A DNA stretch of 8,364 nt from a virus (Duplodnaviria; Heunggongvirae; Uroviricota; Caudoviricetes). This document shows, one piece after another, positions 1,777-7,325 of this stretch. The stretch's first letter is position 1. Every line of letters begins with the position of its first letter. The DNA lies in IMG/VR virus record IMGVR_UViG_2778261360_000001, positions 1-8,364 of that record. One strand, written 5' to 3'. The position numbers were made by a program, and so were the translations under genes. The notes under the pieces are model-generated. The model was not told the origin of the DNA, ran no database searches, and saw nothing but the letters and a program-made list of their open reading frames with translations.

Positions 1777-2073
1777 TCACTCCTGTTCACTGGCCTCTTT
1801 GGCCATCTTCAAATACTGTTCAGGGCAATGCGCCATAACGCGCTGAAACAGTTCCAGCGCCAGATTGCGTTGCCCCTCATTAAATGCCATTGCCATAGCG
1901 TCCATCGGTGAGATAGCGGAAAACACACGGCCTTTCTCCAGCTCCGACCAGACAACGCGACGCCCCTGTTCACTGCTCATGACAAAGCGAATGTCATCAA
2001 TTTCACGCTGCGCCATGTCACGTTGCTTACGGGCGTTTTCTTCTTTCAGTTGATCGTCTTCGTAATCTGTCAT
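1777..2073 (-). CDS. Hypothetical head-assembly-associated protein, 98 aa
   Basis: ATG start overlaps the portal stop (ATGA) and its TGA stop overlaps the scaffold start region, so it is translationally coupled within the operon. No recognisable motif. Confidence 0.55.
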   Translation of the reverse strand: MTDYEDDQLKEENARKQRDMAQREIDDIRFVMSSEQGRRVVWSELEKGRVFSAISPMDAMAMAFNEGQRNLALELFQRVMAHCPEQYLKMAKEASEQE

Positions 2074-3503
2074 TGTGATTGCCCACCCTGACCACTAACT
2101 GCATTCGCCATAGCTGACAAAACACTCGGATCCGAAGTTTTAGCTTCGCTTAGCGTCTTGGCACCCTGTGCCGCCGCCATCCCCATCGCCATCATTTGTT
2201 GCTGCTGTTGCTGCTGTGCCCGTTGCTGGCGAGCCTGCTCAACCTGTTCCTGCGGAACAATGACGGTTGGAGACACTCCGGACATATCAGCGAATGCATC
2301 GATCGCCTGATCAACGTTGAGTTTGTCGAGAGCTTCTGGTTTCGCTTGCGCAAGTTGACCAATGAAGTTAACCGTGGACGCCAGACTGGACAGGCCGATA
2401 GACTTCTGAGCCTGAGCCATGACGGAAATGTATTCGACCTTCAGGGGCATGCCTTCCATCGCGTCAGGCGGTGGCGGCAACATGTTTTTACGCACCATCA
2501 TCGAGAAAGCGCGGTCAATGAGAGGATTAAGACATTCGTCGTTCAGACGCTCCAGAACCGGCCCCAACATCAGAAGTTTTTCTTCTTTCATTTCGATCAC
2601 CGCTTCAACAGGCATCGAGCGGGTATTGATGTTCTGCAACATCATGAACAGATCGACAAAGTAGGCGCTGTTAATGATTTGCCGAGTGTCCTGAATGTCT
2701 GCTACCAGATCTGCTGTACTGGGGTTAACCAGATAAGCAGGCCTGAAGCCATCCTGACCAGTAATCTGATCGATATACGTGATGTCGCCAGGAAGAAGGG
2801 AGGTGCGCTGATTCTTGAGGGAAGTCGGAGCAACCATCGGCGGATTGGTGGCTTTATCAATCAACTGCGACTTGCGCTTCTGGAGAAGCTGCAATGCCTT
2901 AACAGGTCCAAGCGCCAGCATACCCGGGCATGATGATCCATAAACATCTTCGCCGTTAACTTCCCAGCGCGGAGCCATAATTGGAAACTCATCGAATCCT
3001 GACTCACGCAACAACTTGTCGTTATCGCCACCAACCTCGTAATAAACCGATTTGAATGGCTTGTTCTTGCTATCCAGCTTCGATGTATCGCGGTCAATGT
3101 TCGGGTAAACCGAATGCATCACTTCAATCCACTTCTCGTAGGTACCTCTTTCCCACATGCTTTTTACGGATTCGCTGACGTTATTTAGCCCGAACTCCTG
3201 AACAAGCTGACGAACAGTCATAGAGAACTTGCGAAAACAGGTGTCCACACTGCCACGAGGTGAGTTAGCCAGGTAGTAACTGCCTATCGGGAATGGCATT
3301 GTGCGAATGATGTCCTCGTCATCCTCCAGTACCGCCATTGCACCGGTGCTGTATGTGCCGAGGCTTCCGTATAACTGCGGCAGCGACTGATAGAGATTCG
3401 ACTTATTGAACATATCGTTCATGCGGTTCTGCACCGCCTCAAGCCACAACTTAACAGGGCCATAATCCATCATTTCAGGATCTGGCGTAGCCAGCGAAAC
3501 CAC
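2070..3503 (-). CDS. Portal protein, C-terminal segment (frame B) of a frameshifted portal gene. The ORF-finder start is an internal GTG with no SD.
   Basis: 477-codon ORF immediately downstream of terminase and upstream of scaffold and capsid. Its reading frame is open upstream of the nominal GTG and overlaps the end of ORF 3470-3748 in another frame. Contains a poly-Gln tract near the C-terminus. Confidence 0.7.
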   Translation of the reverse strand: MVSLATPDPEMMDYGPVKLWLEAVQNRMNDMFNKSNLYQSLPQLYGSLGTYSTGAMAVLEDDEDIIRTMPFPIGSYYLANSPRGSVDTCFRKFSMTVRQLVQEFGLNNVSESVKSMWERGTYEKWIEVMHSVYPNIDRDTSKLDSKNKPFKSVYYEVGGDNDKLLRESGFDEFPIMAPRWEVNGEDVYGSSCPGMLALGPVKALQLLQKRKSQLIDKATNPPMVAPTSLKNQRTSLLPGDITYIDQITGQDGFRPAYLVNPSTADLVADIQDTRQIINSAYFVDLFMMLQNINTRSMPVEAVIEMKEEKLLMLGPVLERLNDECLNPLIDRAFSMMVRKNMLPPPPDAMEGMPLKVEYISVMAQAQKSIGLSSLASTVNFIGQLAQAKPEALDKLNVDQAIDAFADMSGVSPTVIVPQEQVEQARQQRAQQQQQQQMMAMGMAAAQGAKTLSEAKTSDPSVLSAMANAVSGQGGQSQ

Positions 3504-3748
3504 GGACGCGCGGGGCTTGTGATGCCTGACATCATGCCGCTGGCGAGAGTGCGCGCCGCCATAGTCCCGGTCGAATCAATAATGCGTGTATTGCGTCGAT
3601 CGTTACGGTTGACCTCAGAAGTCAGAAAGCGGGAACCACGCGGGTTGATGTAATCACTCAACTCGCGCCAGTGCGGCTCGAACGACTGACGCTCGCTTTC
3701 AAGTTGTGCGAACTGTTTGTTCAATCGCTCTTTAGTTGTTTCCGCCAT
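3470..3748 (-). CDS. Portal protein, N-terminal segment (frame A); probable 5' part of the same portal gene, interrupted by a frameshift near 3501-3515
   Basis: ATG at 3748 is preceded by GGAG with 8-nt spacing (CGGAGTCATTGAAATG on the minus strand). The ORF ends inside the open upstream frame of the 477-codon ORF. The two pieces together would give a portal of about 560 aa. Confidence 0.6.
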   Translation of the reverse strand: MAETTKERLNKQFAQLESERQSFEPHWRELSDYINPRGSRFLTSEVNRNDRRNTRIIDSTGTMAARTLASGMMSGITSPARPWFRWLRQILK

Positions 3749-3762
3749 TTCAATGACTCCGG

Positions 3763-3969
3763 TTACTGACCAAGCAGCGTTTTACCGCTGGTATTAGCGG
3801 TTGATGTGTCGCCCTGAGAACCGGTAAGCAGCGTAGAACTACGACCAGCAGCAGCGCGACGGCGACGTGTTTCTTCGTCGCGGGCATCAACAACGGCGGC
3901 ATCCTGCTCCTGTGGTGCTGCCTGAACTTCTGGTGTTGCAGGCACTGATGGTGAGCTACCCATGCACAT
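3763..3969 (-). CDS. Small hypothetical protein, 68 aa, Ala/Pro/Gln/Arg-rich and low complexity
   Basis: Its ATG is preceded by exactly the same 12-nt initiation cassette (CGGAGTCATTGA, then 1 nt, then ATG) as the portal N-terminal ORF. Position corresponds to the small gene often found between terminase and portal. Confidence 0.4.
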   Translation of the reverse strand: MCMGSSPSVPATPEVQAAPQEQDAAVVDARDEETRRRRAAAGRSSTLLTGSQGDTSTANTSGKTLLGQ

Positions 3970-4037
3970 ATCAATGACTCCGTACGCAATTAAATTATTA
4001 CCAATTTAACCACATATGATTTATTTATCGTAGATAG

Positions 4038-4066
4038 TTGACATTTAACGCACGAATCATTACCTT
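4038..4066 (+). promoter_or_regulatory. Candidate sigma70-type promoter: TTGACA (4038-4043), 17-bp spacer, TACCTT (4061-4066)
   Basis: Perfect -35 hexamer with a 17-bp spacer and a weak -10 (T1, A2, T6 conserved), in an AT-rich intergenic stretch upstream of the plus-strand leader and tRNA. Confidence 0.3.
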
Positions 4067-4396
4067 TCAGGTAAGCAAAGAGTTCATTCCGGTTATTAAC
4101 CTGACTGGCTTGTCGTTAAATTGAACAGGTGGAGTGAGCTTTTATTTTGAGCAGTACGGCGTATGGCACATGCGCCGATAGCGGTCTGGATACGTTTAAG
4201 GGGCACCCTCCCTTGCTCGAGCAAACGAACCAGGTAGCCGGAATGTGCAAGTCGAGCGGTTTTATTCCGCGCACGGGGATTCACCATCCCGGCGATTCGG
4301 TGTGACGCCTCGGAAGAGACGAGGGTACAACGATGAGAGCATTTATGGAGCCGCGACAAAGTGTGGCGCCTTAACAGGCTAAGTGCTCTCAGCGTT

Positions 4397-4473
4397 GTGG
4401 CATTAGCTCAGTTGGACAGAGCAACCGCCTTCTAAGCGGTTGGTCGCAGGTTCGAATCCTGCATGCCACGCCA
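4397..4473 (+). tRNA. tRNA-Arg, anticodon TCT (reads AGA), 77 nt with encoded CCA
   Basis: Hand-folded cloverleaf: 7-bp acceptor stem (GTGGCAT/ATGCCAC, all Watson-Crick), D-arm GCTC/GAGC with A20, anticodon stem ACCGC/GCGGT, loop CTTCTAA (U33, anticodon TCT, A37), T-arm GCAGG-TTCGAAT-CCTGC, discriminator G, CCA. Resembles host argU but has different acceptor and anticodon stems. Confidence 0.9.
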
Positions 4474-4516
4474 GAATCACGCCTAAGGACCGTGATGCCA
4501 GAAGTTCCAGGGGCTT

Positions 4517-4558
4517 GGCGGTGATGGTTTCCCTTGAAGGACTATCACCGCCCTTTTT
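4517..4558 (+). terminator. Putative intrinsic terminator downstream of the tRNA
   Basis: 9-bp stem GGCGGTGAT (4517-4525) pairing with ATCACCGCC (4544-4552), then C and TTTTT (4554-4558). The loop is large (18 nt). Confidence 0.45.
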
Positions 4559-4636
4559 ACAGCAGGACGCCATTGCGATGACTTCATGCTGTAAACCCGT
4601 ACAGCCACGGAAGGCATAACTCATTGCTTCCAGTTC

Positions 4637-4660
4637 GCCCGGTTCGCCGGGCATTTTTTT
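4637..4660 (+). terminator. Intrinsic terminator or attenuator immediately upstream of the RBS of the 123-aa gene
   Basis: 6-bp GC stem GCCCGG (4637-4642) pairing with CCGGGC (4647-4652) around a TTCG tetraloop, followed by A and TTTTTTT (4654-4660). The T-run runs straight into AAGGTGAGATT-ATG. Confidence 0.6.
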
Positions 4661-4671
4661 AAGGTGAGATT

Positions 4672-5043
4672 ATGAACGACCAGCAAATCGAAAAAGAAAT
4701 CGTTGAGAAAGGCAAAACTGCTCCGCGCGTTACGCCAGACCATATCGGAAGCATTATTGCTCAGGAGGCATATTTCACAGCAGAGGATGGTGCCTTTGGC
4801 AAAGCCATAAAAGCGAAACATACTGGCGGAGAGGTAAACTACCAGCCGCACGAATCACTTTCTCTGCTGACGTTCTGCGTCCTGGTGCTGCGCAACGGCT
4901 TCACCGTCACCGGAGAGAGTTCCTGTGCAAGCCCGGAAAACTTTGATGCAGAAATTGGTCGGAAGATTGCCCGACAGAATGCTGTAAACAAAATCTGGAT
5001 GCTTGAAGGTTACTTGCTGAAGCAGAAGTTAAGCGAGCAATAA
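4672..5043 (+). CDS. Conserved phage protein of unknown function, 123 aa; tentatively resembles the phage Gp49 (N4 gp49 / Sf6 gp66) family
   Basis: Only convincing plus-strand ORF. AAGGTGA SD lies 4-5 nt before the ATG, and it is flanked by terminators on both sides. Family assignment is from memory of the motif and is not verified. Confidence 0.7.
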   Translation: MNDQQIEKEIVEKGKTAPRVTPDHIGSIIAQEAYFTAEDGAFGKAIKAKHTGGEVNYQPHESLSLLTFCVLVLRNGFTVTGESSCASPENFDAEIGRKIARQNAVNKIWMLEGYLLKQKLSEQ

Positions 5044-5046
5044 CAC

Positions 5047-5060
5047 CGTGACATGTCACA
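5047..5060. repeat. 14-bp sequence CGTGACATGTCACA with a 12-bp perfect palindrome core (GTGACATGTCAC), copy 1
   Basis: Identical 14-mer also at 7312-7325. Lies just after the stop of the 123-aa gene and in the 3' flank of terminase large. Confidence 0.8.
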
Positions 5061-7311: not shown

Positions 7312-7325
7312 CGTGACATGTCACA
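7312..7325. repeat. 14-bp sequence CGTGACATGTCACA (12-bp perfect palindrome core), copy 2; overlaps the stop codon of the RHH-like ORF
   Basis: Identical to 5047-5060. Confidence 0.8.

Follow-up and report, generated by a model that had tools for sequence, protein, structure and literature searches.

The stretch of DNA analysed here (the window) comprises 8,364 nucleotides (nt) of the tailed-phage record IMGVR_UViG_2778261360_000001, and the region in question, 4100–4396, is the unannotated stretch 5′ of a tRNA-Arg(UCU) gene. Comparison with homologous regions of other phages shows that this region carries a real, conserved non-coding RNA on the plus strand, pseudoknotted according to its covarying pairs, which we call HEAD (~175 nt, 4156–4327). 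As a whole, 4100–4396 forms the 5′ portion of an early transcription unit of ~590 nt, self-contained and for the most part non-coding, which is exchanged between phages as a cassette and reads in the order promoter, leader, HEAD, a hairpin module (X), tRNA-Arg, two terminator hairpins (T1 and T2) and a promoterless accessory gene.

A comparison across related phages had been proposed in an earlier first-pass annotation of the window, and its outcome with respect to covariation was strongly positive. For this purpose 119 viral contigs, retrieved through a motif at the 5′ side, were combined with annotated phages, resulting in 100 distinct copies and, after clustering at 94%, in 24 representatives; the alignment (A2) comprised 26 non-redundant HEADs. 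The helices were tested by counting paired cells against partners slid by 1–3 columns and by 500 shuffles of the covariation score. Among the 26 HEADs 92.7% of the helix cells were paired, compared to 33–45% with slid partners, and the five HEAD helices reached 95–100%. Both-sided changes were found in 13 pairs (79 cells), and none of the 500 shuffles attained the observed covariation score. The elements of HEAD are as follows.

4157..4177, plus strand: helix P1, CGGCGUAU-GGCAC-AUGCGCCG, 4157–4164 with 4170–4177; 97% of cells paired in 26 sequences
4185..4234, plus strand: helix P2, UCUGG/CCAGG, 4185–4189 with 4230–4234; closes Var1
4190–4229, plus strand: variable domain Var1, swapped for unrelated shorter hairpins in other lineages
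4233..4251, plus strand: invariant strand GGUAGCCGGAAUGUGCAAG, near-invariant in the 26 HEADs (A4242 varies in one sequence)
4252..4275, plus strand: variable hairpin Var2, lineage-specific in sequence and length
4276–4279 with 4287–4290, plus strand: helix P4 with loop UUCACCA, supported by covariation
Within 4276..4302, plus strand: pseudoknot pairing of the P4 loop, CACC 4282–4285 with GGUG 4299–4302
4308..4324, plus strand: helix P5, CCUCG-GAAGAGA-CGAGG, 4308–4312 with 4320–4324; loop conserved

In helix P1 the pair G4161–C4173 is replaced by A–U in 5 sequences, and the P2 pair 4187–4232 occurs as U–A in 18 and as C–G in 8. The P4 pair 4277–4289 is almost evenly divided (G–C in 12 sequences, C–G in 13), its neighbour 4279–4287 is A–U in 21 and C–G in 5, and the pseudoknot pair 4282–4302 is C–G in 22 and A–U in 4, with 100% of its cells paired. 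P5 exhibits both-sided changes in three of its five pairs (CCUCG/CGAGG, CCUGG/CCAGG, GCCGG/CCGGC and CCCUG/CAGGG), 4308–4324 being C–G in 18 and G–C in 8 sequences. Between these helices run the invariant strands UGGCACAUG, AGCGGUC, GGUAGCCGGAAUGUGCAAG, UCACCA, GGCG.U.CGGU.UG.C and GGAAG, separated by Var1 and Var2, which are replaced outright between lineages. AUGUGC at 4243–4248 is complementary to GCACAU of the helix P1 loop, a possible further pseudoknot of which both sides never vary; GCCG with YGGC is another candidate pairing between invariant strands. Since the invariant G·U pairs (4185–4234 and 4162–4172) would read C·A on the other strand, the folded strand is the plus strand. A helix which would close HEAD by pairing its two ends was considered too; on inspection of the alignment it was not consistently supported across lineages.

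The first-pass annotation had described 4100–4396 as non-coding, and the homologues bear this out. No frame stays open across them: stops per frame range from 0 to 9 among the 24 representatives, most of which have stops in every frame, and the variable parts differ between lineages by lengths not divisible by three. Pfam searches remained empty both for an 87-residue minus-strand open reading frame (ORF) and for the ORF which the record of phage mEp460 places over the element on the minus strand. A protein-coding gene was consequently rejected for both strands. Two hairpins named in the same annotation both exist, each shifted by one base: AAGGG/CCCTT lies at 4198–4214, inside Var1, and CCTCG-GAAGAGA-CGAGG at 4308–4324 is P5, a conserved, covarying element across phages. 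The description as GC-rich holds to a mild degree only (54.5% compared to 51.4% for the whole window).

The remaining parts of the unit, in the order of transcription, are:

4038..4066, plus strand: candidate early promoter, TTGACA-17 nt-TACCTT, as read from the letters
4100..4155, plus strand: leader, conserved among Uetakevirus-type units only; aligns with epsilon15, Tyrion, PAT1 and the L026 type
4326..4399, plus strand: X module, a long interrupted hairpin, UACAACG-AUGAGAGCAUU...(insert)...AGUGCUCUCAG-CGUUGUG
4397..4473, plus strand: tRNA-Arg(UCU), occupying the slot termed Y (ARAGORN; Rfam 73.3 bits)
4517..4560, plus strand: T1, terminator-like hairpin 4517–4552 with a 14-base-pair (bp) stem and an 8-nt loop, followed by CUUUUU
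4637..4660, plus strand: T2, hairpin 4637–4652, GCCCGG-UUCG-CCGGGC followed by AUUUUUUU, 11 nt before the ribosome-binding site of the Gp49-family gene
4672..5043, plus strand: Gp49-family gene (Pfam PF13876, E = 6e-34)

The X hairpin has two helical parts of 7 and about 12 bp and an internal loop, folds with −36.6 kcal/mol (z = −6.5 against shuffles) and shows compensatory variants in its stem (AGAGCA/UGCUCU, AGGGCG/CGCCCU, AGGGUA/UACCCU and AGCGCA/UGCGCU). Its last 3 nt are nucleotides +1 to +3 of the tRNA, and the junction CGUUGUGG is constant whatever fills the Y slot. In many phages X is a spacer module adjoining tRNAs or tRNA-like modules; its apical insert varies freely and often contains a T-arm-like sequence in other phages, which is absent from X of the window. 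The Y slot of the window is filled by the only Rfam family above its gathering threshold in the whole window, the tRNA match spanning 4397–4470. In other phages the slot holds a tRNA-sized module, Yb, with a 7-bp terminal stem (GUGGUGA-AUGCGCAGGCUGAUGCGC...GCCGGAGAUCAGCACCGG-UCACCAC), or a third type, Yc. A small hairpin lies between the Y slot and T1. T1 goes with the unit in both lambdoid and Uetakevirus settings, its stem showing compensatory changes; in the Uetakeviruses it is succeeded by T2, a canonical terminator, and by a promoterless accessory gene. No promoter-like site was found between 4474 and 4671, and both T1 and T2 stand between the sole candidate promoter and the promoterless Gp49-family gene.

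The window belongs to an E. coli prophage of the phiV10/epsilon15 type (Uetakevirus); the 691 nt around the element are 99.7% identical to phage phiV10 and to the O157 typing phages 9 and 10. In annotated relatives the portal, capsid and terminase genes all lie on the minus strand, and the plus-strand insert between the portal-side and the terminase genes holds just tRNA-Arg and the Gp49-family gene. As the first-pass annotation had stated, 4100–4396 lies between a candidate promoter and a tRNA; the flanks are an AT-rich divergent promoter region (3990–4099, 29% GC) and tRNA-Arg(tct) at 4397–4473. The weak candidate promoter failed a strict sigma-70 consensus scan of 3900–4750, which returned zero promoters, the −10 hexamer of 4038–4066 matching the consensus at 3 of 6 positions. 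At the equivalent position of the epsilon15 record a repressor site and an IHF site were annotated by the depositor, and an RNaseIII/mRNA-processing annotation in the same phage overlaps part of the sequence equivalent to the leader 4100–4155. When a GC-rich hairpin followed by a U tract was taken as the criterion, no intrinsic terminator or attenuator was found within 4100–4396 beyond a weak, U-poor terminator-like match at 4089–4108, at its 5′ edge.

The core 4156–4396 retains 70–83% identity in phages which share nothing else with the window. Among the lambdoid phages it is carried by mEp460, cdtI, 2H10, Ayreon and Stx2c- and Stx2a-converting phages, and further carriers are P1, P7, D6, SJ46, RCS47, Klebsiella phages and one Stenotrophomonas phage. 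HEAD was furthermore found in 590 plasmid records (the listed examples being mostly P1-like), and ~500 of 5426 complete E. coli genomes (about 9%) carry at least 80% of the 691-nt query, which extends from the promoter to T2. In 125 unique arrays the commonest orders were HEAD-X-T1, HEAD-X-Yb-T1 and HEAD-X-tRNA-Arg-T1-T2, where HEAD-X-T1 denotes arrays without a Y module caught by the search patterns. A tRNA or tRNA-sized module adjoins HEAD in almost all of them. Phage P1 itself has tRNA-Ile-HEAD only, and SopranoGao carries a single HEAD, after which X and Y modules alternate at least three times, the last Y scoring as a tRNA at 29.7 bits. Each phage holds one HEAD copy, and none was found at pR. 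No partner protein co-occurs with HEAD, its neighbour genes differing in every context.

In mEp460 (L002) the cI repressor gene ends with its own terminator upstream of OL-type operators, namely two TTGC-N7-GCAA sites at 2902–2940, the same motif being present between cI and cro; a promoter-like sequence follows the operators and HEAD begins ~45 nt downstream, at 3001. By this order HEAD comes first among the elements transcribed from pL. It is succeeded by X, Yb, a T1-type terminator and a leftward operon of ~5 kilobases. The phage has a Q-like late regulator and no annotated N gene; its first pL gene is not N-like, and no N-like protein was found downstream of the unit. HEAD likewise lies downstream of the repressor gene in Stx2a_1447, mEp390 and the Stenotrophomonas phage BUCT708. 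In phage P1 HEAD belongs to the ban operon, which is repressed by C1; tRNA-Ile ends 14 nt ahead of it and ban is its immediate downstream neighbour. In epsilon15 (L005 2485–2700) the leader, the 5′ hairpin and T2 are kept and the HEAD core, X and the tRNA are gone, apparently through a deletion between two copies of UUCCCUUGAUGCU (TTCCCTTGATGCT), which in its relatives PAT1 and SPN1S lie in the loops of Var1 and T1. The settings in mEp460, phage P1 and epsilon15 are therefore all repressor-controlled early units.

Modules of the array were also observed elsewhere. The ban operon of phage P1 (L004, AF234173, about 540–1330) contains further X modules as well as the 5′ motif of the Yb module; one X stands directly after tRNA-Thr and has a perfect T-arm-like insert, GAGGGTTCGAATCCCTA. 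The minus-strand ORFs annotated as plp and upl lie across these X/Yb modules and may be mis-annotations of RNA modules. Cassettes of X and Yb, about 92% identical across the X/Yb junction, occur in the virulent Klebsiella phages 6991 (L143 1110–1330) and UPM2146 (a Taipeivirus, L144 1140–1310), which belong to unrelated families. Here the modules are preceded by a strong promoter and by another conserved 5′ element, unrelated to HEAD as judged by the HEAD model, which did not recognise it. In 6991 a piece resembling a tRNA 3′ half (ACAGGTTCTAATCCTGT CGCGGGA A CCA) follows Yb, where ARAGORN calls no tRNA. The variable middle of Yb in L070 and L052 (about 400–430 nt after the array start) contains 29 nt which are 90% identical to 16S helix 11 (GGTGGGGTAATGGCTCACCATGGCGACGA versus rrsH 254–282, E = 3e-4 against a single rrn operon). 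In mEp460 (L002) matches to the C4 antisense RNA (83.6 bits) and isrK (67 bits) were detected at 706–894 on the minus strand, inside the annotated antirepressor (Rha) gene; a lambdoid phage thus seems to carry an immI-like module for antisense control of the P1 type.

With respect to its function, we tentatively favour that HEAD is a cis-acting RNA which carries RNA polymerase through the structured array and the terminators, a proposal which we regard as possible rather than probable. HEAD would fold during transcription and, to judge from its genomic context, would render the transcribing polymerase resistant to pausing, Rho and intrinsic terminators. From the anatomy of the unit, an RNase P cut at tRNA +1 (4397) and a probable RNase III cut in the ~20-bp X stem would release HEAD and X from the tRNA. 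The resistant polymerase would complete the untranslated, hairpin-rich array and read through T1 and T2 into the downstream genes, which would be Gp49 here, the pL operon in lambdoid phages without an annotated N gene, and ban in phage P1. Since promoterless genes lie behind T1/T2 and pL operons behind a T1-type terminator, some carrier of the polymerase is required, and HEAD is favoured because it is the only conserved complex element upstream. The stem of T1 points in the same direction. Long-stem terminators (15 bp with a 7-nt loop, the E. coli average being 7–8 bp) resist processive antitermination (PMC10325885), and T1, with its 14-bp stem and 8-nt loop, resembles this class; the placement of T1/T2, HEAD upstream of them and the antitermination-resistant-like stem of T1 together speak for a role in elongation or antitermination in cis. 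The same role is favoured by the repressor-controlled early settings of HEAD, its place downstream of the repressor gene in the lambdoid phages named above, the missing N gene and Nus dependence discussed for the mEp phages, and a weak likeness to putL.

More speculatively, HEAD may constitute a second class of RNA-only processive antiterminators, structurally unrelated to the put RNA of phage HK022, and HEAD-X-Y a so far unrecognised modular family of phage RNA operons; we doubt this more than we believe it. It is likewise a doubtful extrapolation that this class would be used by N-less lambdoid phages (including Shiga-toxin phages), P1 and phiV10/epsilon15-like phages for early transcription through tRNAs, tRNA-like RNAs and long-stem terminators. 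That the operon family would extend even to virulent Klebsiella phages is a conjecture which should be read with the same reserve.

Several observations weigh against a cis-acting HEAD. Its predicted folding energy is no better than that of shuffles (z = +0.4), and the evidence for its structure is therefore comparative and not thermodynamic. No boxA (CGCUCUUA or UGCUCUUUAACAA) was found within 3 mismatches in the unit of either the window or mEp460. Homology to put is not supported: a put model built from 7 put sequences (R2), run with filters off at E ≤ 10, gave no HEAD match in the window and 7 other loci, and the HEAD covariance model (R1) placed its sole full-length alignment in HK022 exactly on putL, with 1.8 bits and E = 3.5 and with only the 5′ hairpin aligned. 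Consequently, membership of the put family was rejected and the functional analogy was kept as a hypothesis. Furthermore, epsilon15 retains its downstream gene behind T2 without the HEAD core, a persistent antiterminator in the Uetakeviruses would send antisense transcription into the convergent terminase gene, and in phage P1 the stretch from HEAD to ban shows no evident terminator. The X-Yb arrays of virulent phages, which have an unrelated 5′ element, moreover indicate that HEAD is not obligatory for such arrays.

Another explanation, doubtful too but nearly as likely as the cis-acting one, is that HEAD is a stable, trans-acting structured RNA, excised by the tRNA-processing machinery and binding a conserved host or phage component; in kind it would resemble GOLLD and ROOL, or else the stable RNAs encoded in the tRNA cluster of T4. 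As a variant, the whole ~590-nt unit may even function as a single large RNA in which the tRNA is embedded. The invariant junction strands, the pseudoknot and the replaceable peripheral hairpins correspond to the pattern of a tertiary core or binding surface, and the tRNA-type neighbour found in almost all of the 125 arrays (in phage P1 the tRNA-Ile 14 nt upstream, elsewhere X with tRNA-Arg or with Yb/Yc), together with the precedent of GOLLD and ROOL near tRNA islands, fits such a product. T1 could be the terminator of the HEAD RNA itself. On the other side, phage P1 has no terminator after HEAD, and the promoterless genes directly behind T1/T2 as well as the first place of HEAD in pL operons would be left unexplained. 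A trans-acting RNA is also at odds with the lack of any co-occurring partner protein, given neighbour genes which change in every context.

The first-pass annotation had listed a tRNA precursor leader among its options, and this gained support from the overlap of the last helix of X with tRNA +1 to +3 and from the finding that no promoter was detected between the region and the tRNA; a structured RNA in one apparent transcription unit with the tRNA is thus supported. That the region would be nothing but a tRNA-precursor leader or spacer, in which HEAD and X fold, insulate and process the tRNA and are functionless once removed, is nevertheless unlikely. X fits this reading: besides its stem overlap and the constant junction, X modules flank genuine tRNAs in phage P1, and its stem is shaped like a phage RNase III site; an RNaseIII site is annotated in epsilon15. 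Processing hairpins of this kind, such as the early sites of T7, comprise about two helical turns of interrupted double-stranded RNA, a shape which the ~20-bp interrupted stem has. HEAD does not fit, neither in its invariant core nor in its lone persistence in phage P1, which retains HEAD without X or a downstream tRNA; P1-like plasmids keep HEAD with compensatory changes, and ~70 invariant positions plus a pseudoknot far exceed the needs of a spacer. Ordinary tRNA leaders are short and not conserved. A remnant of a tRNA array, also suggested before, agrees with X as a spacer module near tRNAs; X of the window, however, lacks the T-arm, and 4100–4396 contains no tRNA-like call. Both ARAGORN and the Rfam tRNA model were blank in 4100–4396, with no cloverleaf, by which a tRNA or tRNA pseudogene was rejected for this region.

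A new self-cleaving ribozyme trimming the precursor at its own border would be compatible with the size, the pseudoknot and the invariant core strands of HEAD, and small ribozymes are common in phage DNA beside tRNAs. We consider it very unlikely, as no Rfam ribozyme family matched at E ≤ 10, no conserved cleavage-site motif was identified and the 5′ border varies between lineages. The Rfam search which had been proposed for 4100–4396 in fact returned nothing from Rfam 15 even at E ≤ 10, and for the HEAD, X, Yb and Yc sequences of 13 related loci it likewise gave nothing beyond tRNAs, the C4 and isrK matches of mEp460 lying elsewhere in that phage.

A role at the DNA level (operator or palindromic binding site, recombination site or origin) or a small protein is close to refuted: for it speak a 12-bp palindrome and minus-strand ORFs annotated over the element, for example mEp460_037, and against it the chance frequency and missing conservation of the palindrome, G·U pairs kept on the plus strand only, the absence of a frame open across homologues and the blank Pfam result. 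The perfect palindrome, TTGCTCGAGCAA, is present at 4213–4224, within Var1, as had been reported, but it cannot be regarded as notable, since 3 perfect 12-bp palindromes occur in the 8.4 kilobases where 2.0 are expected by chance. Most close relatives read TTGCTCGGGCAA instead, in which G at 4220 breaks the symmetry, and other lineages have TGGCTGTGGCAA, TTGCTCTGGCAA or TAGCTCAGGCAA; what persists at this position across lineages is a GC/GC mini-stem with a tetraloop. On these grounds the earlier idea of a protein-binding site was abandoned and a palindromic operator rejected.

Two further features of the window were noted. The portal gene is split into the ORFs 2070..3503 and 3470..3748 by a 1-nt deletion near 3494 (GCCAGGCG to GCCAGCG), the portal of phiV10-type relatives being a single 1680-nt ORF, which indicates either a defective prophage or a sequencing error. 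In addition, another perfect 12-bp palindrome, GTGACATGTCAC, occurs twice, at 5048–5059 just 3′ of the Gp49-family gene and at 7313–7324 upstream of the small terminase gene, and the pair may be a site for a shared regulator.

An unannotated, strongly covarying 175-nt RNA is thus present in some of the most intensively studied phages, namely P1, the Shiga-toxin phages and the O157 typing phages. HEAD is common as well, considering its share of complete E. coli genomes with the full unit and the number of plasmid records. If it did modify RNA polymerase, it would be only the second type of RNA-only antiterminator and would explain the expression of the early left operon in N-less lambdoid phages, including toxin-converting ones. 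If instead it were a processed trans-acting RNA, the link between ornate phage RNAs and tRNAs would extend to enterobacteria, where genetics is easy. Either way, the HEAD family merits a covariance model, which would end its annotation as hypothetical proteins. The opened phage records contain no RNA annotation of HEAD, the locus being blank or covered by doubtful opposite-strand ORFs, and no description of HEAD was found in the literature searched, the coverage of which was incomplete for put-like RNAs and non-coding RNA mining.

Among known systems, ribosomal RNA, lambda nut and rrn-type sites, RNase III hairpins, the GOLLD and ROOL RNAs and the put RNAs were compared with the unit. Mimicry of ribosomal RNA by HEAD was rejected, as HEAD matched nothing in a K-12 rrn operon by blastn-short. 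P5 and lambda boxB are alike in being 5-bp hairpins with a purine-rich loop; the loop of nutL boxB is GAAGA, and that of P5, GAAGAGA, has 7 nt versus 5. Without a boxA such a hairpin alone is not diagnostic, and a lambda N/nut or rrn-type antitermination site was rejected. In contrast to lambda nut, HEAD of mEp460 occurs in a phage without an annotated N protein; a shared trait is that the mEp phages belong to a collection isolated as Nus-dependent (PMC11893012).

By analogy, X may be compared with the RNase III hairpins of T7 early RNA and of rRNA operons, with which it has in common a ~20-bp interrupted stem, an internal loop and a position separating RNAs in a polycistronic precursor. It differs from them in its variable, often T-arm-like apical insert and in its base, which extends into the acceptor stem of the tRNA. 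The RNAs GOLLD and ROOL are found in phages in the vicinity of tRNA islands, GOLLD at times with tRNAs inside it. Like HEAD they are phage-borne, elaborately folded and adjoining or covalently linked with tRNAs, whereas HEAD matches neither family in Rfam, is much smaller, occurs in temperate phages of enterobacteria and lies close to the promoter of early operons.

To our knowledge, put of HK022 is the only known RNA-only antiterminator. It suppresses pausing and termination in cis through the beta′ zinc-binding domain of RNA polymerase, and put-like RNAs comprise putL and putR of HK022 and those of HK639, HK75, phiEt88 and others. The role proposed here for HEAD resembles put in its logic, with no detectable homology. 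Both are positioned just downstream of the early promoter pL in lambdoid phages without an N gene and ahead of terminators, a placement which was found in mEp460, Stx2a_1447, mEp390 and BUCT708 and which recurs in the window as promoter, HEAD, T1, T2. The 5′ hairpin of HEAD shares CGGCG...CAUGCGUCG..AGCG with HK022 putL, a weak resemblance to putL stem I; put, however, has ~70 nt and two stems, compared to ~175 nt and five helices including a pseudoknot in HEAD. HEAD is new as an RNA family, and its kind, a tRNA-linked structured phage RNA and/or an RNA element of early transcription, has precedents.

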